Source: Hyphomicrobiales bacterium (GTDB lineage Bacteria; Pseudomonadota; Alphaproteobacteria; Rickettsiales; JACKKO01). From it: DNA of 64,000 nt. Under the pieces are notes generated by a model. The model was not told the DNA's origin and searched no databases. It worked only from the letters and a program-made list of their open reading frames with translations. The position numbers and the translations under genes were made by a program. How positions within the stretch are numbered: the first letter of the stretch is position 1; every line of letters starts with the position of its first letter. Positions 9,052 to 25,191 of this stretch are shown here, piece by piece. The DNA lies in NCBI GenBank assembly GCA_024236395.1, contig JACKKO010000001.1, positions 576,937 to 640,936 on the forward strand, given 5' to 3'.

Positions 9052-10890
9052 ATGTTAATGGAACAAGATATAGATATCACTGATTATTATCAGAAAGTTG
9101 TTACCTATAGGGTCAAAGACTTTCTGAATGCGTATATTGGCAAACATGGAAAAAAGCCGGATTTTGCAAAACCATCAAATTTAAGTGATCCTGAATTACA
9201 CGCCCTCTTGGTTGAAATAACAGATATCGTGGCTAATACATTCCCTTTAGGAATGGAGGTAAGACAGGAAAGTCGGGCAGAAAATGTTATTGGCAGTTAT
9301 ATTGATTCCATTCGGTCTGGAGATCCTATCAAAATAAGATACGAAGAGCTTTCTGCGTTTATTCATCATAAGGCCTATGAAGTGATTATAGCAGCTGTGG
9401 ATGCATTTATTAAGGGTACATCCATTAAGGATGGGTCCGATAAGATATTACGTAAAATGTATACGGATCTGAGTGAAATTGAATTTGAAATGACCGGAAA
9501 GCTGACAGGCAAGTATGGCTTTAAGAACGCTGAAGAGAGTCAACGGAAGGCCAAAAGATATATAACGGAGACTCTCGATAGTATTCTAGACAGCTTATCC
9601 CAAGGCGATCAGTTTACTTTGGATAATTACTCCAGCTTTAAGAATAATATACGCAAAATAATTAATGAAGAATATGTCAGAGCCGTTGAAGAGGTTATTG
9701 GGTACACATTTGCAAACAAAGAAATACTCATAAGAGCGCTAACCCATCCGAATATTGATAATAATCCCAATAAGAATTATGAACGTCTGGAGTTTATCGG
9801 GGATGGGGTATTAAATTTTGTTGTGTCGCAAAACATAGACCCTTTGGCTCCACAAAGGGTAATTCTGCGGGATAATAAAATCAAAAGTTCAAATCTTGCT
9901 AAGGCACAGAAAGAACTGTCCATTGATCATTCTGTATGGAAAATAGGTGTTCTCACACAAAAAGATCGTGAAGATAATTTTGAAGCAATTATTGGTGCTA
10001 TCTATGAAGACGGTGGCATTGAGGCGGCACAGAAATTTGTTCTTAAGCGACTTCGAATGGATGAATTAAATACACGTGTCAAACCCGATGTAACAGGGTT
10101 GCCTACAGATTCTACAAACGAAACACAAGCTAGGCTAAAGCATCGATTTCATCATCCGGAGTATGTAACGGCAGTTTTTGCCTCCCAAGAAAACACTGCG
10201 CGCAAAGCACTGCTCAGCATGGGAACGGAAACGCTGAATTTTGTGGTTTACCGGTACATATTTGAACACCGGGAGGACCTGACAATCACGGAGATGGGAT
10301 TAGCCAGAGATGCGTTGATCAATAACCATAATATTGTTGCTATCATGAAGCAGCAGGGAGTTATAGCATCTGTCCCACCTGCAGAAGCGAGTAAAGGTTA
10401 TACAAAGCAAAGCGCAGACACGTTCCGGGCATTGACGGAGGCTGTGTATCAAGATGCTAGCCAAAAAAATGCAATGCCTGAGGCACTGGAAGAAGCCTAC
10501 CGTTTTATCAAGAAACAACTGATCCTACCCTTAACACAGGACAAACCACTTAAAGAACTAATGGTGCCAAACTACAAAAATATTTTAAACGCATTCGAAA
10601 ATGCGATCCCCACTATGCATGTTTCAATAAAATACTCTGGTGAAGCAGGAAACTATGTAACAGACCTTACAATTACACATGAAGAGCAAGAGGTATTAAA
10701 AATAAACATGGAGACAGAGTATTCGAGCCGTACAAGACGCAGTGAAGAAATTGCAAAATTGGCGGTGGAAGAATTGCAGCGGTCAGAAATTCGTGGCCAG
10801 CAGAATCCATTCTTCCATACTGTTCAACAGCTGATGCAGAAAGACACAATAGCCAACCAGATACGCATGACGACGAGTTTGGAGCGCTAG
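9052..10890 (+). CDS. tandem RNase III-domain protein: unknown N-terminal region + intact RNase III domain + degenerate RNase III-like domain + dsRBD-like C-terminus
   Basis: aa 244-251 ERLEFIGD and aa 308-320 DNFEAIIGAIYED form a complete RNase III signature. aa 385-400 KALLSMGTETLNFVV and aa 455-468 ADTFRALTEAVYQD have the same pattern with the acidic residues replaced. aa 506-577 fit a dsRBD-like alpha-beta3-alpha pattern. The gene is A+T-rich. Confidence 0.75.
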   Translation: MLMEQDIDITDYYQKVVTYRVKDFLNAYIGKHGKKPDFAKPSNLSDPELHALLVEITDIVANTFPLGMEVRQESRAENVIGSYIDSIRSGDPIKIRYEELSAFIHHKAYEVIIAAVDAFIKGTSIKDGSDKILRKMYTDLSEIEFEMTGKLTGKYGFKNAEESQRKAKRYITETLDSILDSLSQGDQFTLDNYSSFKNNIRKIINEEYVRAVEEVIGYTFANKEILIRALTHPNIDNNPNKNYERLEFIGDGVLNFVVSQNIDPLAPQRVILRDNKIKSSNLAKAQKELSIDHSVWKIGVLTQKDREDNFEAIIGAIYEDGGIEAAQKFVLKRLRMDELNTRVKPDVTGLPTDSTNETQARLKHRFHHPEYVTAVFASQENTARKALLSMGTETLNFVVYRYIFEHREDLTITEMGLARDALINNHNIVAIMKQQGVIASVPPAEASKGYTKQSADTFRALTEAVYQDASQKNAMPEALEEAYRFIKKQLILPLTQDKPLKELMVPNYKNILNAFENAIPTMHVSIKYSGEAGNYVTDLTITHEEQEVLKINMETEYSSRTRRSEEIAKLAVEELQRSEIRGQQNPFFHTVQQLMQKDTIANQIRMTTSLER

Positions 10891-13575: not shown

Positions 13576-15084
13576 TTATGTCATGACGGTGGCTTTTACA
13601 GGCATGCTCTTTATCTCAGGCAATGGTACGGTTGAGCGGCCATAATAATCATCTACGCGGATAATATCATCCTCACCAATGTAGCTGCCAGATTGAATTT
13701 CCACCAGTTCCAGTAATTTCTCTCCGGGGTTCTCCAACCGGTGCAGAGTGTTGGGGGAAATAGTGATCGAGTCGTAACGATGTAACTGTTGTATTTTTGT
13801 GTCATATGTGACCTGAGCAGTACCACGGAGGATAATCCAGTGTTCTGATCGGTACTGGTGTTTCTGTAAGGAAAGTCGGCCCTGCGGAAAAACGTGAATA
13901 TGTTTAATGCAATAGCCAGGCTGCTCATGCAATATTGTGTAATAGCCCCAGGGACGGTCTACCCGTGGGTGCTTTTTAATGAGTTCAGGATGGGTCTGTT
14001 CAAGCTGGGTGAGAAGGGGTTTGAGGTACTGTGCTTTGTGACGGTCAGCCACCAGCACAGCGTCTTCTGTGGCGATGATTGCCAGATTACGGACCCCTAA
14101 TGTCGTAATCACCGGCCCCGTGCTGTGTAGGTAACTGTTTTGGGTTGCTTCGGTATGGCATGCTCCCTCGCAGACATTCCCGTCTTTATCCTGCCCCGTA
14201 AGCTGCCAGATGCTATCCCAGGAACCGGCATCTGCCCAACCACAGGCGAACGGCATAACCACCGCCTGTTTTGTGTGTTCCATCACGGCGTAATCAAAGG
14301 AAATTGCTGGCATGGTACCAAAATGTTCTGCGTTAAGCCGTAGAAAATCCCTATCGTGAACAGCAGTGCCATAAGCCAGTCTTGCTCCTGAGGCAATATT
14401 GGGAGCATGTGTTTCAATTTCTGACCGAAAGGTAGAAACACTACCCATGAAGATTCCACTGTTCCAAAGATACTTATCAGATGCGGCCATTTCTTCGGCC
14501 AGCCCTTTGGAAGGCTTCTCTGTAAAAGCATAAACCGGGGCAGTGCTTTTGTCGTTTCCGTTCTGTTGGTGGCGTTCTATATACCCATAGCCAGTCTCAG
14601 GCCGGGTGGGAGGGATGCCAAATGTAACAAGCTTGCCCGCAAGGGCATCCCCCATCGCCTGCTCAATGGCTTTACAAAACGCTATATCATCCAGGATGAC
14701 GTGGTCCGCCGGGGTAATAAATATGATGGCATCCGGTGCCACGGTATGAATATGTTCTACTGCTGTGGCAATGGCTGGTGCGGTATTACGGCCTTCCGGT
14801 TCCAGGATAATGGCAGGAACATACCCCAGTGCCTGCACTGCTTGCTCTGCCACCGTGAAACGATGCACGTCGTTGGCAATAATGATGGGAGGGTGAAATA
14901 AGTCAGGATGCAGCAGACGCCGGAGTGTCTGTACAAAAAGGGTTTGCTCCATGCCAGGAAAACGATGAAAAGGTTTTGGCCGATCATGCCGGGAAAGTGG
15001 CCATAGACGGTTACCGGCCCCGCCACACAAAATCACTGGATAAATGCACCCACTGCCCATCTGAAACATCCCCAGTACCAGCAT
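13576..15084 (-). CDS. manC: mannose-1-phosphate guanylyltransferase / mannose-6-phosphate isomerase
   Basis: PVILCGGAGNRLWPLSR nucleotidyltransferase motif and a C-terminal cupin (RPWGYY...LSLQKHQYRSEHWIIL). The true start is probably an internal ATG at 15069 or 15060. Confidence 0.9.
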   Translation of the reverse strand: MLVLGMFQMGSGCIYPVILCGGAGNRLWPLSRHDRPKPFHRFPGMEQTLFVQTLRRLLHPDLFHPPIIIANDVHRFTVAEQAVQALGYVPAIILEPEGRNTAPAIATAVEHIHTVAPDAIIFITPADHVILDDIAFCKAIEQAMGDALAGKLVTFGIPPTRPETGYGYIERHQQNGNDKSTAPVYAFTEKPSKGLAEEMAASDKYLWNSGIFMGSVSTFRSEIETHAPNIASGARLAYGTAVHDRDFLRLNAEHFGTMPAISFDYAVMEHTKQAVVMPFACGWADAGSWDSIWQLTGQDKDGNVCEGACHTEATQNSYLHSTGPVITTLGVRNLAIIATEDAVLVADRHKAQYLKPLLTQLEQTHPELIKKHPRVDRPWGYYTILHEQPGYCIKHIHVFPQGRLSLQKHQYRSEHWIILRGTAQVTYDTKIQQLHRYDSITISPNTLHRLENPGEKLLELVEIQSGSYIGEDDIIRVDDYYGRSTVPLPEIKSMPVKATVMT

Positions 15085-15120
15085 ACGTTGTACTGGCAGG
15101 GAATCAATAGCGTTTATGGT

Positions 15121-16389
15121 TTATTTTGTTGGGTAATCAAAAAATGCGAGCGCGTCTTTCAGATTGTTATTTAGTTTTTTTTGTACAGGTTTTGGTAAAT
15201 CTTTCCGCCATCGCCCAATAGAAGCAGTCGCGGATTGACTGGTTTTGTGATCATTACTCCAGTCTTTATCATGATTAAGCGAACCCAGAAGTTTCTTGTT
15301 AGTGTCTAAACCGAGAAACTTAAAAATCTTCCGGAACGTTTTTTGTGGAGTGCTGACAATATCCTCATATTTCACCAGAATTTTATTATCGCTGTTAAAA
15401 TGTGTAAAACGCTCGAAAGTTTGTTGATTTTCCTGAATGAAGAAGTCCAGAAATTGGCTGTTATTATCAAAAAACTCACGTCCGAAAGAATAAAACCCAC
15501 GCTTCTTATTAAACGATAGAATGGAACTATAAACATCCCGGTAATCACGCACGACAAAAATGAATTTTGTCTTTTCGATATAGTGATGAGCGGTTTCAAA
15601 GTAGCAGGCAGATCCTTTCATTTTCTCCAGAAAATAACGGGAGCCAGAGGGATCCAATGCTCCATACATATTTACTATCTGACGCGCCAAAGCAGTGCGG
15701 GTGGTTTCAGTAAAAGCATCGAAGTTCCACATCAGTGCGCCGAGGTTATAGCTGGCATAAAAGAATGGAGCAGGGAGCTGCTTTTTGTGTTCAAAAAAAC
15801 TATCTGTAATCACGGTATCGTTTATTGTCGGCATGCTGTTCAGTGTATCAAATGCCTGCAGATAATATTGGGAACCATAAAATTCATACGGGTAACCGGG
15901 TTGGCAAAAAATATCCGTATGCTGCTGTAATACATGGCAGATATGTGTGCTTCCGCAACGTCCACGCGAGAGCATGACCAGATAAACCGGTGTGTGTTGG
16001 GCTGTTGGGAAAGGAGTATGATGGTTATTAATTGTGATACCTGCGGCGGTGCGTTCACCGATTTTCTTGAAATTTACAATAATCTCCACATGAAGGTTTT
16101 CTGGAAAAACGGAGAGGTTCAGGAACGACTCAAAGCCATTTTTTTCTATATATATCGTGCCCGGATGTTGTTCATAGATATCCTGACGTGCATAGCGGGT
16201 AACCGGATAGTCTTCCCCATTAAGGCGTATATGTAACGAAAGTACGTGTTCTTTTTTTGAAGCAAACCAGCCGCGAATGTGTAAAATGTTTCCTTCTGTC
16301 CCCTTTTTTTCCTGCGGGGATTCCAGCCAGCAGATCAAGTGCTTTTCATTTTCTTCGTTAAAATAACGAATGGATTCGATGGTGTGCAT
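15121..16389 (-). CDS. sulfotransferase-family protein with an N-terminal ~125-aa extra module
   Basis: A PAPS 5'-phosphosulfate-binding-like loop (VMLSRGRCGSTHICH) and a 3'-phosphate-binding-like motif (FIFVVRDYRDVYSSILSF). The N-terminal module carries LHIRGW...RYARQDI, which is also seen at the WbsX C-terminus. Confidence 0.65.
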   Translation of the reverse strand: MHTIESIRYFNEENEKHLICWLESPQEKKGTEGNILHIRGWFASKKEHVLSLHIRLNGEDYPVTRYARQDIYEQHPGTIYIEKNGFESFLNLSVFPENLHVEIIVNFKKIGERTAAGITINNHHTPFPTAQHTPVYLVMLSRGRCGSTHICHVLQQHTDIFCQPGYPYEFYGSQYYLQAFDTLNSMPTINDTVITDSFFEHKKQLPAPFFYASYNLGALMWNFDAFTETTRTALARQIVNMYGALDPSGSRYFLEKMKGSACYFETAHHYIEKTKFIFVVRDYRDVYSSILSFNKKRGFYSFGREFFDNNSQFLDFFIQENQQTFERFTHFNSDNKILVKYEDIVSTPQKTFRKIFKFLGLDTNKKLLGSLNHDKDWSNDHKTSQSATASIGRWRKDLPKPVQKKLNNNLKDALAFFDYPTK

Positions 16390-16536
16390 AGTTTCTCTCC
16401 TGAAGACATACCATTATAATCCTGTTGAAGTGCGTGTAAATCACTGCACTTAATTTATTTATGTGTCGCTCTCATATAATCGCCTTGCGTCATTCCGTAC
16501 ATTAGTATCTAATGCGGCAATTAGAAGGGGGGATTT

Positions 16537-17541
16537 ATGGCACAAACAGCAGTTCGTACACGTAAAAAAACTACCGCAAAAGCAAAACCTAAAAAAACAG
16601 TAACTCCACGCAGGAAGCAGTCAGCGCTAAAGGCAGTTGCTGCTCCGTCAGCGGCACAGGTAGCGGTCGCTACGCCGGGTTCTGTATTGCCAGCAGTGGA
16701 TGTACATGATTCACTGGAACAATTTGACCGCGATGGTTTTCTGATTCTTGAGAAGTACCTTAGCGATGACCTGATTGAAAAAATCAATGCTGAGGCGCGG
16801 CATTTTTATGAAAAGCAGGGTGCGCATATCAATAATGTGGGCCGTACCATGAACATGCATCGGGAATCACCGACTATTCAGCAGGTACTGCATGATCCCA
16901 ATCTTTTTAAACTACTAGGTACGTTGCTGAAGGCAGAGCCGTATTTCCTGCAGTCCATCTATTTCTTCCGTGGTTCACAGCAGCCGCTCCATACCGATTA
17001 TCTTTATATGTCTACGGAGCCACATCTACAGCTTTGTGGAATCTGGTTTGCTTTGGAGGATGTTGATCTGGATAATGGTCCACTGATGTATGTGCCAGGT
17101 TCGCATAAACTGCCGATTGCCTCGGTGAAAGACCGGTATGATACGCACTTCAAAATGATTTCCGATTACGTGGAAAAACACCGTGAGGAACTAGAGATAC
17201 AGTACCGTGATCGTATTAGTGTGACCAATGAATCGCTGGAAAGCTGTGTTTTCTTTGATCGCTGGCTGGATGAAATCAATAACAACTGGAAATCAGCTGG
17301 GATGGAAGTGAAATGGTTCCAGCCGAAGAAGGGTGATGTGCTCGTCTGGCATGCGAATCTCATGCATGGCGGGGATATGATTCGTGACCATAACCGGACG
17401 CGGAAATCTTTTGTAGCACACTACTTAACGCAAGCGGTGGAGACATACTACGATATGAATTACCCGGACAAGAAGAACCCGATGAAGCTCAGTGAGATTG
17501 ATGTGAATCGTCCGGCCGTGCTGCAGATTCATAATCGCTAG
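16537..17541 (+). CDS. phytanoyl-CoA dioxygenase (PhyH)-family Fe(II)/2-oxoglutarate oxygenase with a basic N-terminal tail
   Basis: H-x-D (PLHTDYL), distal His (WHANLMHGGD) and Arg (RKSFVAHY). The first ~45 aa are Lys/Ala/Pro/Thr-rich. Confidence 0.8.
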   Translation: MAQTAVRTRKKTTAKAKPKKTVTPRRKQSALKAVAAPSAAQVAVATPGSVLPAVDVHDSLEQFDRDGFLILEKYLSDDLIEKINAEARHFYEKQGAHINNVGRTMNMHRESPTIQQVLHDPNLFKLLGTLLKAEPYFLQSIYFFRGSQQPLHTDYLYMSTEPHLQLCGIWFALEDVDLDNGPLMYVPGSHKLPIASVKDRYDTHFKMISDYVEKHREELEIQYRDRISVTNESLESCVFFDRWLDEINNNWKSAGMEVKWFQPKKGDVLVWHANLMHGGDMIRDHNRTRKSFVAHYLTQAVETYYDMNYPDKKNPMKLSEIDVNRPAVLQIHNR

Positions 17542-17567
17542 AAGTTTTCTGGTATTGCTCAGGTAAT

Positions 17568-17603
17568 AAAAGAAACCCCCGCAGCTGCTGGGGTTTCTTT
17601 TTG
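17568..17603. terminator. bidirectional rho-independent terminator between the convergent PhyH genes
   Basis: AAAAGAAACCCC-cgcagctgct-GGGGTTTCTTTTT: a GC-rich stem with an A-run on one side and a T-run on the other. Confidence 0.7.
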
Positions 17604-17616
17604 GAGTCTAATTCTT

Positions 17617-18684
17617 TTACCACTTGGTCTCTTTGTTGCGTACGGTGTGTTTCACTTCGCGCCCGCAATAATACTGCTTCACTTCCTTCTGCGTGGCGAT
17701 ATTGTAGATATCACGCCACCGTATACGCCCCTCATCCATGTAGGGATCGGAGAGCATGGGGGTATAATAGGTGCACTGGTCGAAGTAATAGTGCGTGACC
17801 TGACTCAGCCGCGTGCGTGTATTATCACTGATAGCATCGCCGCCATGGAACAAATTGGCTGACCAGACCAGCGCCTTGCCTTTGGGAACATAAAGGTGTT
17901 TCTTTTCAAACCCCTGCGCTTCCATGAGTGCCTGCACCAACTGCTCGTATTTTTTGTACTCCGTCATGTTAATTTCTTCTTCCCGTCCTTCCAGCATGTA
18001 GTCACTGCCCACTACGCCAAGGGTTGCCATGTCATAGACGGGGAGTTTATGGCTGCCCGGATAGTAGTGCAGCGCGCCATTGGTCTCATCAATGTCTTCC
18101 AGTGCAATCCAGACGCCGCACATAAAGCGTTCCGGGTAGCAATAGAAGTGAATCGCATCGCTGTGTGTTCCCTGTTCTGTGCCATAGAGGAAATTCAATG
18201 TTTGGAAGGGAATCGGCTCACGCTGATAGAGTAGCTGCAGCAGATCCATGATCTTGGGATGCGCCGCCAGCATGCGTGCATCCTCACTGAAGGCAAACGC
18301 ATCATGGATACGTCGCGGTGGATTGTCTTTATCAAACAGATTCTGGATATTTTGCGCCAGCGTATCAAAATTCGGGATATCCAGATCCACCACCACAAAT
18401 CCATCATCAGAATAGGCCTGCACCAGTTTCTTGGTTTCGCTATCCAGGCCGGATTTCTCAAGAATTTGCTTAAAGAACGGCGATTCCGTCCACGGCAACT
18501 GAAGATTCATTCCCTGATAGGAAGTATCAATTTTTGTAATTTTCAGATCAGATGCATCATGTGATTTGGTTTTGGCACTTCCCGGCTTAATTGCTGCTTT
18601 CGTCACGCGCTTCGCAGGTTTACGCGTGACAGGTTTGCGAGGTTTAACGGCTTTTTTTGTTTTTGTTGCAACGGCAGTTGGCAT
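17617..18684 (-). CDS. PhyH-family Fe(II)/2-oxoglutarate oxygenase, paralog of 16537-17541, with a basic N-terminal tail
   Basis: GTHSDAIHF (H-x-D), WSANLFHGGD, RLSQVTHYY. It shares ALED[VI]D..NG.L.Y.PGSHKLP with the neighbouring paralog. The N-terminal ~45 aa are KKAVKPRKPVTRKPAKRVTKAAIKPGSAKTK. Confidence 0.8.
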   Translation of the reverse strand: MPTAVATKTKKAVKPRKPVTRKPAKRVTKAAIKPGSAKTKSHDASDLKITKIDTSYQGMNLQLPWTESPFFKQILEKSGLDSETKKLVQAYSDDGFVVVDLDIPNFDTLAQNIQNLFDKDNPPRRIHDAFAFSEDARMLAAHPKIMDLLQLLYQREPIPFQTLNFLYGTEQGTHSDAIHFYCYPERFMCGVWIALEDIDETNGALHYYPGSHKLPVYDMATLGVVGSDYMLEGREEEINMTEYKKYEQLVQALMEAQGFEKKHLYVPKGKALVWSANLFHGGDAISDNTRTRLSQVTHYYFDQCTYYTPMLSDPYMDEGRIRWRDIYNIATQKEVKQYYCGREVKHTVRNKETKW

Positions 18685-18698
18685 AACATTATCCTTTG

Positions 18699-19559
18699 CT
18701 AGCTGTTGAGGTAGACATCTTTTAACCCGGTATGATCAATATACGCGATAAACAGGCCGGGCCAGTTGGATTCACACGGGCAAAGCGGATTCTCCGGTTT
18801 TCCCGTTTTAATCATACCAAAGAAATTCTGTACCAGATTCTCGCCCTCTTTACGGCCATCATCGTCAATATCAGAAATGGTATTGGAGAGATGAAGGCGG
18901 TAAAAATATAGCGGCCTTTCAATAAAAACCGGCTCAGTATAAAACAGGCAACGGAGCAGGAAATCATAATCGTGACAATAGCGATAATCCTTAAATATAC
19001 CCACTTTCTCGAAAAGGCTGCGTGTAAACAGAAAATTCCCCGTGGTGAGTGCTACGTTACGGGTAATTGTGGAAAAGCCGACGCTGGGATAGCGGCGGAT
19101 CGTATCCTGGTAGTGCTTTAAAGTATGTACATAGGTGCTCTGGGTGGGGTAGAGCGGCTTATTTTTCTCATCCACATACTCCACACCGCTGAAGACAAGA
19201 TCAGTCTTTCCTTGCTCAACAGGAACCAGCATCTCCGCAAAACGTGCCGGGTGAAAATAATCATCGGAATTGAGAATGGCCATAGCATCACCGGTGGCCT
19301 GCTTTAACCCATAATTAATTGCATTGTGGGCACCCTGGTTTTCCTTGAATTTGGTGAATTTCGTACCATCTTTACCAAAACGCGCTTTCCATTCCTTACT
19401 GGAAATAATCGCATCTACTACGGCAACGGACTGGTCTTTGGAAAAATCATCTACCAAAACAACTTCAATATCTTTGTGCGTTTGGGCATAGACAGACTGT
19501 AAGGCCTTTGCCACATACTCTTCGTGGTTATAGACCGGGATAATAACGGAAACACGCAT
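18699..19559 (-). CDS. family 2 glycosyltransferase
   Basis: MRVSVIIPVYNHEEYVAKALQSVYAQTH...VVLVDDFSKD...NSDD. The start is set at the ATG at 19559, which is preceded by GGAGGTGG. Confidence 0.85.
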   Translation of the reverse strand: MRVSVIIPVYNHEEYVAKALQSVYAQTHKDIEVVLVDDFSKDQSVAVVDAIISSKEWKARFGKDGTKFTKFKENQGAHNAINYGLKQATGDAMAILNSDDYFHPARFAEMLVPVEQGKTDLVFSGVEYVDEKNKPLYPTQSTYVHTLKHYQDTIRRYPSVGFSTITRNVALTTGNFLFTRSLFEKVGIFKDYRYCHDYDFLLRCLFYTEPVFIERPLYFYRLHLSNTISDIDDDGRKEGENLVQNFFGMIKTGKPENPLCPCESNWPGLFIAYIDHTGLKDVYLNS

Positions 19560-19569
19560 TACCACCTCC

Positions 19570-21333
19570 TTATAGGATTTGCAGGACTTTATTGGTCCAG
19601 CCGATGACGTATTTTTGTGTATCGTATACAGCAAGCGCCAGCTTATATTGTCCCTTAGGCAGGCCTGCCAGGTTGAAGCGGGCATCGAAGCCAGCAAGGC
19701 AAACCGTTTCCGGAGTACATTCACGGAAAATTTGTACCACATCACTACGCTCAAACCCACCCCAGATCAGTGCATGAAAGGTTTGTTTGGTTTCGATGTT
19801 TTGTAAGATCGCGGCCCGATAGGGATCCTCTACCTTCGCAGCAATATTCTCAGAAAACAACCAACCACGCAGGTGCAGTAGTTCCTGATTTTTGACCTGT
19901 ACCAGGTTGGTGCGGTTATCTGGTTTGTGGAAGATATCAATATGGAATGCAATGCGGTGCATTTGTGGCAGGGACTGTATAAAACCCGGCCACCCCGGCA
20001 TGAAGCTCAAACTATCTAGTAGCTCATTGAAGCCGTAGCGATCTTTGACCAGTTTCAACAGTGACTGAATGGTGCGGTCACGGATTTCCAGCTCTTTCTG
20101 ATAACGGTCAATGAGCTTGGAAACAGGCTCCGGTAATGGAATATCGCTGGCCAATACCAGCGCAGCCTGTTTATCCACAGGGACATCCCCCTGTTTTGCG
20201 CGTTTGGTGGCCTCCAGGTAGGCGTGGCCATATTTTTGATCAGGCTCCAGATGTGCGCCTTCGGCCCATTCGTTCCAGGCGTTGATGAACAACAGCCGGT
20301 TGCCGGGTTCCAGGCGATGCCGGGTTTCCTCTACAATGGTGGCCAGCCAGCTCTCATAGGCTTCCGGCGAAGAATCGAGGAAGATATACCCATTATTCTT
20401 ACGCCGGGCGGTATTATCCCAACTGGGCATGACCCCACGGTAAAGCGGAAAGGAGGGTAGTTTGCGCGTGAGGCTTAAGGAAACGATTTCATTATAGTCA
20501 TAAAGTTTTCCGCCAAATTCTTCGGACATGTCCTCCAACTCTTCTGTTTCCACATGGGAGAGGTCATACTGCAGCGGTGGAAACTCAATCATCGCGTCAA
20601 TGCCAAAGCTGGTCAAATCATGCTCCGGCTGTGTCATCACAGCGCAGATCTGTACCTCGTCAATGCCTTCATTCTGCCAAACTTTACGCCATAACTTGAG
20701 GGTATCCTGCAGGTTGGGAATATCAGTGGCCTTATAAACAATGAATAAAGGTTTACCCTGCACACGGATGTAACGCTCATCCTTAAGGATAGGTGCCACT
20801 TCTTTCGCAAAGAGTTCCGGGTCTTCCTTGCGGTATTTCTGCTCAATCAGGATATCGTCATCCATACCATCCCAGCGGCGCGTCCAGTTTTCATTGGCCC
20901 AACAAATGCAAAACGGAAAGTCGCTATCCGAAGCCAACATATTTTCTAAGGGCTTTTCCAACAGTTTTTTGCCACTGAACCAATAATAGTAATAACAGAA
21001 TGCATCCACACCATGTGCTTTGGCAAGACGTGCCTGTTCTTTCTGAATCTCACCCATACGCAAATCATAAAAACCCAGGTCAGAGGGGACATGCGGCTGG
21101 TAGTGTCCTTCAAACTGTGGCTGCCCTTTGGCAACGTTAGACCACTCGGTGAAACCTTTACCCCACCATTTGTCATTCTCTGGAATCGGGTGGTATTGTG
21201 GCAGGTAGAATGCAATCAGAAACGGATCTTCCTGCACATTTGCCAGAGGCCTGCTGCTTTGCTTATCCTCAATCTTAACAACAGCCTTTGGTGCGGTGGC
21301 GATTGCCTTTTTCTTTGCGGATGCACGTGCCAT
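19570..21333 (-). CDS. WbsX-like (GH99-like) glycan biosynthesis protein with a C-terminal extra module
   Basis: AFYLPQYHPIPENDKWWGKGFTEWSNV is the WbsX-family hallmark. The C-terminal ~120 aa carry LHLRGW...FERSDV. The start is set at the ATG at 21333. Confidence 0.8.
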   Translation of the reverse strand: MARASAKKKAIATAPKAVVKIEDKQSSRPLANVQEDPFLIAFYLPQYHPIPENDKWWGKGFTEWSNVAKGQPQFEGHYQPHVPSDLGFYDLRMGEIQKEQARLAKAHGVDAFCYYYYWFSGKKLLEKPLENMLASDSDFPFCICWANENWTRRWDGMDDDILIEQKYRKEDPELFAKEVAPILKDERYIRVQGKPLFIVYKATDIPNLQDTLKLWRKVWQNEGIDEVQICAVMTQPEHDLTSFGIDAMIEFPPLQYDLSHVETEELEDMSEEFGGKLYDYNEIVSLSLTRKLPSFPLYRGVMPSWDNTARRKNNGYIFLDSSPEAYESWLATIVEETRHRLEPGNRLLFINAWNEWAEGAHLEPDQKYGHAYLEATKRAKQGDVPVDKQAALVLASDIPLPEPVSKLIDRYQKELEIRDRTIQSLLKLVKDRYGFNELLDSLSFMPGWPGFIQSLPQMHRIAFHIDIFHKPDNRTNLVQVKNQELLHLRGWLFSENIAAKVEDPYRAAILQNIETKQTFHALIWGGFERSDVVQIFRECTPETVCLAGFDARFNLAGLPKGQYKLALAVYDTQKYVIGWTNKVLQIL

Positions 21334-21596
21334 ATATTCCCCCCCTAGCAAATGGATACTGAAGCAATATGTATTGTTCTAAAGGAAGAATGTGTAAAAA
21401 AAAACTGTCTTTTTACATATAACAATGCATCAGAAAGATTTGCTATGAAGTTGCCTTTGTTTCTTTACATATGGAATTGCACGTATCATTTTAAAAATTA
21501 AACGAAAGTATTTCTTGTGGTAAGAAGTGGCTGGCGAAAATTAAGATAATTATTAACATATGCTCTAAACAACATAAACCCCCTAGAATTGATGTA

Positions 21597-22109
21597 ATGG
21601 AAAAGCTAAAAGATATCGATAACTTATTTGAAGTTGATTTTCGAAGTCAGATAAGGGCACGCGAAGGCTTAGAAAAACTTCATGCTGAGATAAAACAATG
21701 CCTTCTCGATGAAGTGGTGCCGGAAGATATCCGTACTAACTTTGTTAGTGCATGCAATACATTGCTTTACTCTTGGTTCGCATATGCGATTTCTACAACA
21801 GCATTAATTCATGCGATAAGTACTTTGGAGTATGCATTAAAAAAAAGGATTTGTATTCAGAACAAAAAAAATCTTGGTTTAAATAAACTGCTAAGACAAG
21901 CAGAAGAAAAAGGACTAATACACGATGGTGTTTTTCGACACAGCTTTCCTGAAAAAACCAAACGTTTTATAGAGAGTATATCCCAAATTAGAAATGAACT
22001 CATGCATGGCACTTCGTTTCTTACTGATCAGGGGCAAATATTGCCCTTCTTCCGGAATATTTCGGAAGTAATAAATTGTTTGTTTCTGGAAGGGAAGGTT
22101 GAAAACTAG
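21597..22109 (+). CDS. hypothetical protein with a HEPN-like R-x4-H motif
   Basis: 170-aa A+T-rich ORF, predicted helical, with the motif SQIRNELMHG near the C-terminus. The stop lies 17 nt from the 3' end of tRNA-Met. Confidence 0.5.
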   Translation: MEKLKDIDNLFEVDFRSQIRAREGLEKLHAEIKQCLLDEVVPEDIRTNFVSACNTLLYSWFAYAISTTALIHAISTLEYALKKRICIQNKKNLGLNKLLRQAEEKGLIHDGVFRHSFPEKTKRFIESISQIRNELMHGTSFLTDQGQILPFFRNISEVINCLFLEGKVEN

Positions 22110-22125
22110 TATCAACAAAGATGAT

Positions 22126-22201
22126 TGGTAGGGGGTGAGGGACTTGAACCCCCGACCAAGGCGTTATGAGCGCCCTGCTCTAACCACTGAGCTAACCCCC
22201 C
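22126..22201 (-). tRNA. tRNA-Met or tRNA-Ile2 (anticodon CAU), elongator type
   Basis: Minus strand: GGGGGGT acceptor, TAGCTCAGTGGTTAGAGC D-arm, loop CTCATAA, T-arm GGGGGTTCAAGTCCCTC, ACCCCCT-A-CCA. It lacks the initiator hallmarks. Confidence 0.85.
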
Positions 22202-22259: not shown

Positions 22260-22784
22260 TTATCGATATTCCGGGGTGCGGCCTAGCCAGTCAGTTTGGT
22301 ATTTGCCGTCACGACCCAGCCAATCGCCTTCCCCGCCCCAGTAATTCTGGTTGTAACCTTCGATACCTGAGGGAAGATCACCATCTTCCCGGTTCGCTGT
22401 CCACCACAAGCCAAGTCCTGCACCCAGCATGGGCTTACGATTACGCAGATTGACGCTGGAACTGAAACCATCCGTTCCCCAGAAGCCGTCCCCCAGGTAA
22501 CGGTTGATGAAGCTCCGGCAATATTGGTAGCCATCAGTCCAGGCACGGAAGTAAAGCGGGTGGCGCACCATTTTTAGATCCTGTTTGAATTTGTAGAAAG
22601 CGCGGTAATAATCGTTCCCATAGGCATGTAACCCGGATTCGCACCCGTCATCCCAACCCTGTTTAAATTCCGGGGCGGCATCGGCCGGGGCATGGGCCAT
22701 GGACCATGGGCGTGGTTTGCATGCCGAACCCAGGACTGTGGTAATGCATAACGTTATGATCAATACTGTAAAACGCTTCATCAT
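22260..22784 (-). CDS. secreted/lipoprotein paralog 1 of the GW-DGC module family, with a G/W/D-rich C-terminal extension
   Basis: Signal MMKRFTVLIITLCITTVLGSAC, then module FKQGWDDGCESG...YFRAWTDGYQYC. The extension contains two DWLGR repeats. The start could be 22793, 22784 or 22781. Confidence 0.65.
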   Translation of the reverse strand: MMKRFTVLIITLCITTVLGSACKPRPWSMAHAPADAAPEFKQGWDDGCESGLHAYGNDYYRAFYKFKQDLKMVRHPLYFRAWTDGYQYCRSFINRYLGDGFWGTDGFSSSVNLRNRKPMLGAGLGLWWTANREDGDLPSGIEGYNQNYWGGEGDWLGRDGKYQTDWLGRTPEYR

Positions 22785-22797
22785 CCTCTCCATTTTA

Positions 22798-23127
22798 CTA
22801 CCATGGCCGCAACCATGTCCACACATACCAGCGGCAATAGGTATAGGCATCTTTCCATGCGCGGTAATATTCCGGGTTACTCAGCAGGGTCATATCCTGT
22901 TTGTACGTATAGGCCCATTTATAGCGGTCATTGCCATATACTCCCAGTCCAGTATCACAGCCGTCATTCCAGCCTTGCTTGAAGATGGTGCTACCCTCCG
23001 GGGTTTCGCCCATTCCCCATGGGCGCGGACGCACCAACTGCTGGTACATTGCCTGGCAGCCGGATAATATTAGACAGGCTCCCATCAGCAGGCAGAGTGT
23101 TCGGAATGTGATGTGTTGTTGTTTCAT
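22798..23127 (-). CDS. lipoprotein paralog 2 of the GW-DGC module family
   Basis: Lipobox LILSGC|Q and module FKQGWNDGCDTG...YYRAWKDAYTYC. The start at 23127 is preceded by GAGGTGG. Confidence 0.7.
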   Translation of the reverse strand: MKQQHITFRTLCLLMGACLILSGCQAMYQQLVRPRPWGMGETPEGSTIFKQGWNDGCDTGLGVYGNDRYKWAYTYKQDMTLLSNPEYYRAWKDAYTYCRWYVWTWLRPW

Positions 23128-23134
23128 ACCACCT

Positions 23135-23455
23135 CTACAACACATGCCGCCGGTAATACTGGTAAAAATAACGCTGGCAATACTTAAACGCATCACGCCA
23201 GCCCTTATGGTATACGGGATCCTGTGCCTTAGACCAGTCCTGTTTGAAACCATAGAAAAACATGTACCACATATTCACTGTACTGCTGGCACCCGTTTCG
23301 CACCCATGCTGCCAGCCTTCCACATAAAGCGGTGTATATTCCCGTCCCGGCGGGGGGCCTTTAAACATCCATTGCGCCCAGGGCGGTCCGGCACGACACC
23401 CGCTGAGTGCGATGACCAGCGCCAGAAGTAACAAACACGGGCGGAACATACGCAT
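23135..23455 (-). CDS. lipoprotein paralog 3 of the GW-DGC module family
   Basis: Lipobox VIALSGC|R and module YVEGWQHGCETG...YHKGWRDAFKYC. The start codon overlaps the stop of paralog 4 (TGATG). Confidence 0.7.
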   Translation of the reverse strand: MRMFRPCLLLLALVIALSGCRAGPPWAQWMFKGPPPGREYTPLYVEGWQHGCETGASSTVNMWYMFFYGFKQDWSKAQDPVYHKGWRDAFKYCQRYFYQYYRRHVL

Positions 23456-23790
23456 CAGTAGGGCATCCGTTTAATGGTTTCACCATAACCGGCACAATAC
23501 AGAAATGCGTCCTTCCAGATATTGTAGTACATTTTGTTATTCCGCAGCTTGGGATCCATCTTTAGATCGAATGCGCGGATCAGCTTGTAAAAAGTTCCCA
23601 CGTAAGAATTTAGCCCGGATTCACAGCCATCGCTCCAGCCCTGGCGGTATTCCGGTGGTCCAGGAGGTGGCTCCAGGTTAAGTGAAACGGGTTTGCGCAG
23701 ATCCAGTGTACCGCCTTTACCCGTACAGGCAGGTACTGCCAGTATGATAACCAGCGGGAGTAAAACAATGCTGCTGTAACGCTTTTTCAT
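23455..23790 (-). CDS. lipoprotein paralog 4 of the GW-DGC module family
   Basis: Signal MKKRYSSIVLLPLVIILAVPAC|T and module YRQGWSDGCESG...YYNIWKDAFLYC. Confidence 0.7.
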   Translation of the reverse strand: MKKRYSSIVLLPLVIILAVPACTGKGGTLDLRKPVSLNLEPPPGPPEYRQGWSDGCESGLNSYVGTFYKLIRAFDLKMDPKLRNNKMYYNIWKDAFLYCAGYGETIKRMPY

Positions 23791-23792
23791 AC

Positions 23793-24125
23793 TTAGTGCG
23801 GGTCCACGTCAATCATATACATGCAATGGTTACGGCCAATCACATAACCGCGGTAATACTCACGATCCTCAATGGCACGGTTGGGGTCGTAAGTGAATGG
23901 GTGCAGGCGTTGCAGTGCCATGCCCGCGCTACCAATCTGAGTGGTGCAGCCATCTACCAGCCCCTGCGAGTAGCTGCTGCCATCGTCCGGGAACTTTCCG
24001 GCAAAGGCAATATTCGGTGCCCAGAATGAGTTCAAGGGGGGTGGTTTACATCCAGCTAGTGTCAGGATGGGGATGGCTAGTAGCATTGCTTTACAGACTG
24101 TATATATGGGGGAGCGGTATACCAT
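23793..24125 (-). CDS. lipoprotein paralog 5 (most divergent) of the GW-DGC module family
   Basis: Lipobox ILTLAGC|K and module YSQGLVDGCTTQ...YYRGYVIGRNHC, with both cysteines conserved. Confidence 0.6.
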   Translation of the reverse strand: MVYRSPIYTVCKAMLLAIPILTLAGCKPPPLNSFWAPNIAFAGKFPDDGSSYSQGLVDGCTTQIGSAGMALQRLHPFTYDPNRAIEDREYYRGYVIGRNHCMYMIDVDPH

Positions 24126-24201
24126 ACTGTTATTATAAGGGATAAACCTTAACAGAGGGTAAACAAAACACAGATAACGTTAAGACTTATAGGGCAAAAG
24201 G

Positions 24202-25191
24202 TTAAAGATGCATAAAGCCCTGTTTTGTAATACTTATTGACGATCCGGAGACATCCAGAAGTCGGGGGGCATGTTTACTCTTCGTTGCTATGCCAATCCG
24301 GGTGATGGGCAGGGCAAGTGTTTGAGAAAAATTCTTTATTTCTGCCAATTTGTCTTCTGGCGCGGTAAAAAGCAGTTCATAATCATCCCCGGCGCTAAAG
24401 ACCTGTTGCCAGATTTTCGGCCAGATTTCCGGATAGCGGGTTTCAAGGGCATGGGCAGCGGCAGACCGGGGCAGGGCGTTATACTGCACATCCGCCCCCA
24501 CCCCGGAAGCATGGCAGAGGTGCTGGAGATCGGCCAGTAACCCATCGGAAATATCCATGGCGCTGGTGGCAATTCCACGTAACTGTTGCCCCAGTGCGAT
24601 GCGTGGTTCCGGTAGTAAGTAACGGTGCAGCAGATAGTCCCGGTCGGTTTCCGGGAGATCGGGCAACTGACCCTTGCGCAGCATTAAGCCCAGTGCGGCA
24701 TCCCCCAGCGTGCCGGAGACATAAATCACATCGCCCGGCTGTGCCCCGCTACGCTGCAGGCAGGCGCCTTTCTCACACTGTCCCAGCATCGTAATAGAAG
24801 CAACCAATGTTCCATCATGTGCCGTGGTATCGCCGCCGGAAAGATAAATGTTATAGCGCAACTGCGTATCACCCAGACCGTTGGCAAATGCTTCCAGCCA
24901 TGCTGCGGTAACATTGCGTGGTAGTGTCAGACACAGTTGATAACTATGCGGTGTGGCGCCCATCGCCGCCATATCAGAAAGGTTTATGGCGAGTAGTTTG
25001 GCGGCAATATGCTGCGGTGCGTCATCCGGGAAGCAATGTACCCCTGCAATGAGTGTGTCACTGGCAATCAGCCATTCCTGGCCCTTCGGGCAGGGCGGTA
25101 GGCGGGCGGCATCATCGGTGAGGGCAAAGGTTTCCGGATGCTGCCGGGTCAGCGGGGTGAGCAAGATGTTGATGAAGTTGAATTCATCCAT
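24202..25191 (-). CDS. thiL: thiamine-monophosphate kinase
   Basis: 329 aa with an AIR-synthase-like fold pattern (ALTDDAARL..., LINLSDMAAMGA, GGDT). Confidence 0.9.
   Translation of the reverse strand: MDEFNFINILLTPLTRQHPETFALTDDAARLPPCPKGQEWLIASDTLIAGVHCFPDDAPQHIAAKLLAINLSDMAAMGATPHSYQLCLTLPRNVTAAWLEAFANGLGDTQLRYNIYLSGGDTTAHDGTLVASITMLGQCEKGACLQRSGAQPGDVIYVSGTLGDAALGLMLRKGQLPDLPETDRDYLLHRYLLPEPRIALGQQLRGIATSAMDISDGLLADLQHLCHASGVGADVQYNALPRSAAAHALETRYPEIWPKIWQQVFSAGDDYELLFTAPEDKLAEIKNFSQTLALPITRIGIATKSKHAPRLLDVSGSSISITKQGFMHL

Follow-up and report, generated by a model that had tools for sequence, protein, structure and literature searches.

Why should a bacterium carry five related small lipoprotein genes in a row? 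The question is raised by positions 22260-24125 (minus strand) of the window, by which is meant the whole 64,000-nucleotide stretch analysed here (contig JACKKO010000001.1 of assembly GCA_024236395.1, positions 576,937 to 640,936). At this locus the listing of open reading frames (ORFs) and direct reading of the strand both gave five tightly packed genes, here called A to E (Table 1). In every product a signal peptide with its lipobox cysteine is followed by a proline-rich linker of ~28 amino acids (aa) and a helical module of ~55 aa with two cysteines. A and B lie 2 nucleotides (nt) apart, B and C overlap by 1 nt (TGATG), and gaps of 7 and 13 nt separate C from D and D from E, the former containing AGGTGG, 3 nt upstream of the D ATG. 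An earlier interpretation made from the letters of the window (the sequence-only reading) had described this arrangement, with its spacings and its position between tRNA-Met and thiL, correctly, and had explained it as a fivefold amplification under diversifying selection. Comparison with other genomes leads elsewhere: A to E are ancient, position-specific orthogroups forming a fixed quintet, and are not the product of recent amplification.

The survey of loci, in which one genome per GTDB species was scanned with the B orthogroup, gave 49 loci, or 50 with the window. All 49 lay in metagenome-assembled or single-amplified genomes labelled Rickettsiales, Rickettsiaceae, Alphaproteobacteria or Proteobacteria, from lakes, groundwater and sea water. 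When all ORFs of the 50 loci were translated and searched with a hidden Markov model (HMM) of the family, exactly five modules were found in 39/50 loci, tightly packed on one strand, and more than five in none. Six of the shorter arrays were cut by contig ends. Genuine partial arrays consisted of B-C only (L032, 5992-6686) or A-B-C only (L039, 5512-6601; L023, 5679-6641), those of L032 and L039 being second copies in genomes that also possess a five-module array; they hint that A-B-C or B-C is able to act as a sub-module. The median intergenic distance was ~1 nt, with overlaps (-1 and -4) the commonest values, the lipobox-based start caller being crude enough (in the window, for instance, it gets the starts of D and E wrong) that the gap distribution alone was used.

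Classified by best hit against A to E of the window, the arrays read ABCDE in 21 loci, with noisy variants in more distant ones, and position-specific HMMs trained on 16 arrays assigned the order A-B-C-D-E to most of the arrays kept out of training. For each module, the three best BLAST hits in other loci fell at the same position index in 569/675 cases (84%). Permuted order was seen in two loci (L044, 5020-6861; L045, 4620-6484), where an E-like long-tailed gene comes first, followed by A and three further modules. Genomes with two arrays (for example L005 with L026, and L024 with L034) carry whole-array duplicates of 32-50% identity, so that duplication within genomes has involved whole arrays, not single genes, and is ancient. 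With exactly five modules in most loci, in the same order and in position-specific orthogroups, the proposed fivefold amplification does not hold.

Nor does the proposed diversifying selection. Between the window and loci L001, L003 and L016, B, C and D were 44-70% identical (53-70% in most comparisons), compared with 40-45% for ThiL, 27-43% for NusB and 57-61% for RibH, making these three lipoproteins more conserved than the neighbouring ThiL and NusB in the same genome pairs. Ratios of non-synonymous to synonymous substitution (dN/dS, Nei-Gojobori) were 0.04-0.09 for L015/L016, 0.08-0.12 for L025/L033 and 0.06-0.13 for L047/L048; these are the three closest pairs of loci, distant pairs being saturated at synonymous sites. 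All five positions are under strong purifying selection, and dN/dS of 0.04-0.13 contradicts a reading of the array as amplification with diversifying selection. The roles in phage interaction, host interaction or inhibition that had been suggested alongside it found no support.

Paralogy of the five proteins is significant by BLASTP (A against D, E=1e-07; B against C, E=2e-13; D against E, 86 bits), bearing out the shared module of the sequence-only reading, every quoted motif string of which is present in the window proteins. Invariant columns of the five-way alignment include the lipobox cysteine, G-x-x-x-G-C, a tyrosine and the second cysteine. The two module cysteines, already singled out as conserved, are invariant in an alignment of 99 sequences and are spaced 41-45 residues apart in 273/276 modules; they probably form a structural disulfide within the module. 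Mature modules are very aromatic (15-23% W+Y+F). An AlphaFold2 model of D, based on the 99-sequence alignment (mean predicted local distance difference test score, pLDDT, 93.9; predicted template modelling score, pTM, 0.78), was all-helical, with the signal helix, a short helix, an extended proline-rich stretch and helices at residues 47-64, 67-72 and 85-106. Foldseek gave no significant match for this model in the PDB (best E=2.2, TM 0.2) or in BFVD (best E=0.98), and nothing at E≤0.001 in either database for single-module and B-C fusion models.

Searches by sequence likewise placed the module outside named families, as had been supposed. A to E had no match at E≤1 among 24,736 Pfam-A models and none in PHROGs or PADLOC, and PDB sequence-profile searches with full-length and trimmed alignments matched no chain. 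The 18,950 NCBIfam models gave sub-threshold matches only, both on C: VirB7 (E=0.17; 11.7 bits, cutoff 60) and LptM (E=0.2; 11.8 bits, cutoff 27.7), in each case confined to the signal peptide and lipobox. Among 99 family members compared with Pfam at E≤10, the only recurrent match was to the lipoprotein attachment-site model LPAM_1 (17/99 members). A single-sequence search with E recovered 5 relatives only; a profile of the trimmed module recovered 271 proteins at E≤0.01, all of them unnamed and without a precomputed Pfam domain. A HMMER scan of 1.84 billion representatives extended the family to 620 clusters (50% identity) at E≤1e-3, 290 of them at E≤1e-10; the best 150 of the 620 were all small (78-298 aa), and the names of cluster members were all ‘hypothetical protein’. 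The module is therefore a real, uncatalogued protein family. No description of it was found in literature on tandem or paralogous lipoproteins in Rickettsiales, nor was a described counterpart found there for a fixed operon of five lipoprotein paralogs, lipoproteins themselves being of a known kind.

All five proteins possess a positively charged n-region, a hydrophobic core and a lipobox cysteine, the make-up of a lipoprotein N-terminus (lipobox pattern [LVI][ASTVI][GAS]C). The earlier claim of such a cysteine in every one of them was thus right as to the cysteine and less so as to the box, which is canonical in C and D (LSGC), LAGC in A, and atypical at -2 and -3 in B (VPAC) and E (GSAC); orthologues of B and E carry the cysteine within canonical boxes (LSGC, LSAC, VAGC and similar). 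Across the family, a lipobox could be recognised in 226/278 homologues starting with M (most commonly LSAC, LSGC, LSSC or LTSC), and the glycine of GWxDGC followed the lipid cysteine at a median of 28 residues. The +2 residue was variable (T, S, N, E, G, K, D and others), with Asp in 13/226. Lipidation of A to E is predicted from these signal sequences. Location in the outer membrane, suggested in the sequence-only reading from the lack of Asp at +2 in A to E, would follow from the +2 rule, which is that of E. coli and is not validated for this alphaproteobacterial lineage; the host is diderm, the window also encoding Porin_4 and an HldE-like protein.

Outside the shared motif, every orthogroup has its own conserved signature, linker included. 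A, whose signal peptide ends ...LTLAGC/K, is the most divergent paralog and is acidic (orthogroup mean isoelectric point, pI, 4.8); its module, YSQGLVDGC...YYRGYVIGRNHC, scored 71.6 bits against the family HMM, and A-type orthologues occupy array position 1. B combines a conserved linker (LDLRKPxSLxLxPPxGPPEY) with the module GWSDGCESG...WKDAFLYC, and 21 columns are invariant in the alignment of its 28 orthologues. C is basic (orthogroup mean pI 8.3), with the linker RAGPPWxQWMFKGPPPG, the orthogroup signature CRAGPPWxxWM and the module GWQHGCETG...GWRDAFKYC. D and E both have an RPRPW linker, PRPW being a linker signature common to their orthogroups; the module of D is GWNDGCDTG...YYRAWKDAYTYC, and that of E, GWDDGC(47)...YQYC(88), is followed by an 85-aa tail. 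B, C and D of the window are identical to homologues P0014, P0023 and P0006, respectively, from the module profile search.

The tail of E (G 19%, R 9%, L 9%, D 8%, W 7%) opens with a helix extension, RSFINRYLGDG, and closes with the two DWLGR motifs of the earlier description, both of which were located in the window sequence. In 14 orthologues the tail is G-rich and 49-126 aa long; DWL[GNW]R occurs in 9/14 close orthologues, in five of these between an extra pair of cysteines, and two copies per tail are found in the window, L004 and L006. The NCBI model of E (H6908_02825, 146 aa, P0001) starts downstream, at MAHAP, leaving out both signal peptide and lipobox. The 173-aa form (P0283) is the one predicted by the gene callers of ENA and Logan, orthologues agree with it, and the public annotation of gene E is corrected here accordingly.

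Two of the five positions can be joined. Fusion lipoproteins of B and C (~225 aa, 51-70% identical) form a clade of at least 17 clusters, mostly marine, and keep both modules and both cysteine pairs behind a single lipobox, giving arrays of five modules in four genes (L050). An AlphaFold2 model of a fusion had pTM 0.66 and mean pLDDT 73.5, the modules scoring above 85-90 and the linker (125-134) being of low confidence; this pTM, reached despite the free signal helix, weakly supports a defined arrangement of B relative to C in the model.

What, then, might a fixed set of five paralogs be for? The explanation we put first, though tentatively, is that A to E would be subunits of one stoichiometric, hetero-oligomeric envelope lipoprotein complex with a B-C core. 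The pattern is that expected of such a complex: a one-of-each set, a conserved order, overlapping or adjacent start and stop codons, and the B-C fusion. A set of five under purifying selection at least as strong as that on neighbouring housekeeping genes is, moreover, typical of an essential or near-essential multi-subunit machine. To judge from the sequences, Sec would export each protein, which would receive its lipid on the lipobox cysteine and lose its signal peptide to signal peptidase II. The mature proteins would then hang from the membrane on the ~28-residue proline-rich linker, each carrying a small aromatic three-helix module stapled by a disulfide from the cysteine at the start of helix 1 (DGC) to that of the last helix (YC). 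Comparative genomics suggests that the paralogs are not interchangeable, and that one each of A to E may form a hetero-oligomer around the B-C core, with A-B-C and D-E as possibly separable sub-modules. More speculatively, the tail of E, with DWLxR, could act as an adaptor reaching out to peptidoglycan, an outer-membrane protein or some other partner, and the assembly might be a lineage-specific part of the envelope in environmental Rickettsiales-like alphaproteobacteria, serving structure or tethering and being neither an enzyme nor a variable surface antigen. A fuller version, possible but doubtful, would be a hetero-pentameric and perhaps ring-like assembly of helical lipoproteins, each stapled by a disulfide, with a fold absent from the PDB and a lineage-specific envelope function (such as tethering or a scaffold) for which other bacteria use unrelated proteins.

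Several observations weigh against a single complex. Each subunit has its own lipid anchor, which fits five independent proteins too; the partial arrays of L032, L039 and L023 indicate that not all contexts need all five; the model of the B-C fusion is just moderately confident; and the flanks of the surveyed loci gave no conserved neighbour or fusion to a known domain that would provide a functional handle. The comparison of folds covered the PDB and BFVD, so that a distant structural relative may be missed.

The anchors and partial arrays, together with the signature that each orthogroup carries outside the shared motif, would also fit five independent lipoproteins working in parallel, each binding or inhibiting a different ligand (lysozymes or proteases of hosts or predators, or nutrients) and co-transcribed because all are needed together. 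Lipoproteins that act as small periplasmic inhibitors are known, MliC and LprI among them. Proteins that bind independently should differ between lineages in their number and order, but both are constant here and whole arrays are duplicated; the fusion of B with C in one clade also speaks against this alternative. Nor did any of the 99 members scanned match the Pfam models of MliC/PliC, Ivy, PliG or LprI (DUF1311) at E≤10. We consider this alternative unlikely.

It is improbable that the quintet serves as an accessory to a known envelope machine whose genes lie elsewhere in the genome, such as Tol-Pal, the flagellar basal body, a Tad pilus or a secretion system. The neighbourhoods that would suggest it, with the array directly after tolB and fliH/fliN 4-5 kb upstream in OZ244955.1, and with genes for a Tad ATPase and TadB/C-like proteins upstream of the array in L043 and its relatives, each recur in only 1-4 of ~50 loci, the commonest neighbour being the unrelated thiL; the sole similarity to such a machine is the sub-threshold match of the C signal peptide to VirB7.

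Lipoprotein metal and redox sensors exist, and the invariance of both cysteines, with an additional pair around DWLxR in several E tails, could be read as a redox-active or metal (for example Cu(I)) site, the quintet then forming a periplasmic thiol-disulfide or metal relay. This is very improbable, given that CxxC and other known redox or metal motifs are absent, as is any conserved cluster of His or Met, that the flanks show no recurrent genes for redox or metal functions, and that cysteines 41-45 residues apart on different helices have the geometry typical of a structural staple. Least credible, almost to the point of dismissal, is a recently amplified envelope or surface family diversifying for host, phage or ligand interaction, for although lipoproteins can be surface antigens and the paralogs are only 23-47% identical outside the motif, that divergence is ancient, with same-position orthologues 50-70% identical in other genomes, and the dN/dS values, the constant copy number and the lack of any PADLOC or PHROG relation all argue the other way.

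Known systems offer partial parallels to the proposed lipoprotein complex. Lpp, Pal and LpoB are Gram-negative lipoproteins of the Lgt/LspA pathway tethered by a flexible or proline-rich linker. Like A to E, they are small, with a Sec signal and lipobox, a linker to a compact periplasmic domain and a probable structural role in the envelope; unlike A to E, they are encoded by single genes, and they have no similarity to the quintet in sequence or fold. In the BAM complex, the mutually unrelated lipoproteins BamB, BamC, BamD and BamE dock on the beta-barrel BamA. It serves as a working analogy, with several lipoproteins in fixed stoichiometry in one envelope complex, but the quintet subunits would be paralogs of one helical module, homology is lacking, and no gene for a partner barrel lies close by. 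VirB7, a lipoprotein of type IV secretion, is disulfide-linked to its partner through a cysteine; it and LptM are, like A to E, very small lipoproteins, and are the sole NCBIfam models with any signal, but the mature module is not related to either. Borrelia has paralogous lipoprotein families, and the S. aureus nuSa-alpha lpl cluster is one of tandem paralogous lipoproteins (PMC4470592). These clusters resemble the quintet in having related lipoprotein genes head-to-tail at one locus, but their copy number varies by strain and they are associated with host interaction, whereas the number, order and sequence of the quintet are conserved over deep lineages under strong purifying selection, and there is no homology; the copy-number variation and relaxed or diversifying selection that mark variable tandem lipoproteins were not seen in it.

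The family comprises ~620 clusters, all of them unnamed and without Pfam domain or structural relative, and it belongs to poorly known environmental relatives of Rickettsiales, whose envelope biology is relevant to the origin of intracellular lifestyles. Should the hetero-oligomeric complex prove real, the quintet would add both a small protein fold and a Pfam family to those now known, offer a way into envelope architecture that is specific to a lineage, and serve as a clean test case for the evolution of heteromers from paralogs by duplication, subunit specialisation, fusion and whole-operon duplication.

Table 1. Positions of the quintet and of other features of the window.
Feature	Coordinates	Strand	Length	Remarks
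Gene A	24125..23793	minus	110 aa	lipobox LAGC/K
Gene B	23790..23455	minus	111 aa	lipobox VPAC/T
Gene C	23455..23135	minus	106 aa	lipobox LSGC/R
Gene D	23127..22798	minus	109 aa	MKQQH...; lipobox LSGC/Q
Gene E	22784/22781..22260	minus	174/173 aa	M(M)KRF...; lipobox GSAC/K
E C-terminal tail	22263..22517	minus		residues 89-173
DWLGR motifs of E	22311-22325, 22278-22292			
Spacer, thiL stop to A start	24126..24201	minus	76 nt	
thiL	24202-25191	minus		AIRS/AIRS_C domains in L001 and L003 orthologues
tRNA-Met	22126-22201			
ORF next to tRNA-Met	21597-22109	plus	170 aa	
Glycan-modification island	13576-21351			
Protein with RNase III domain	9052-10890	plus	612 aa	
ORF with RTX repeats	41-1561	plus	506 aa	GTG start

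In the window the quintet lies downstream of ribBA-ribH-nusB-thiL on the same strand, and the rib-nusB-thiL and quintet arrangement recurs in L001, L003 and L016. A scan for promoters and terminators found nothing convincing, with three promoter-like sites against 4.5 expected and no terminators. The window comes from a metagenome-assembled NCBI contig of 734 kb, with locus tags H6908_02825-02840; the assembly calls the organism ‘Hyphomicrobiales bacterium’, nr ‘Rickettsiales bacterium’. An identical E was found on three further contigs from three other datasets, 99.95-100% identical to the window.

A ThiL homologue directly upstream was the commonest neighbour of the array (8 loci). Elsewhere the flanks held NfeD with SPFH/Band_7 (4-5 loci), tolB (one) or Tad pilus genes (few), and a two-component system lay downstream in a few loci; this variability of the flanks marks the quintet as a self-contained unit. 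In the complete 2.1-Mb metagenome-assembled chromosome OZ244955.1 (L002/L006; L002 5367-9167), the array that follows tolB stands in the usual position of pal. Adjacency to tolB was rejected as a general sign of a Pal-like role, being found in one genome only, where it may be coincidence. A predicted lipoprotein of ~170 aa, rich in Cys and Tyr and without a Pfam match, is convergent directly downstream of the array in four loci (for example L028, 4507-5019, minus).

Beyond tRNA-Met, the window contains a glycan-modification island with a ManC-like enzyme of GDP-mannose, a sulfotransferase, two PhyH-family dioxygenases, a GT2 and a WbsX glycosyltransferase. Its guanine-cytosine content is 0.44-0.47, against 0.52-0.54 in the lipoprotein and thiL region, and it may have been inserted next to the tRNA gene. 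Between the island and tRNA-Met, and also in the identical ENA contigs, lies an ORF with a weak, sub-threshold match to a Swt1-like HEPN domain (E=5e-4; 20.7 bits, cutoff 27.5). Other products of the window include PutA, an RTX protein and a PHB depolymerase, and together with Porin_4 and the HldE-like protein they point to a metabolically capable diderm host, not a reduced obligate parasite. The ORF near the start of the window has nine stretches of RTX calcium-binding nonapeptide repeats, which suggests a type I secreted protein. The 612-aa protein, much longer than bacterial Rnc, has a central RNase III domain (residues 222-334) as its sole recognised domain.

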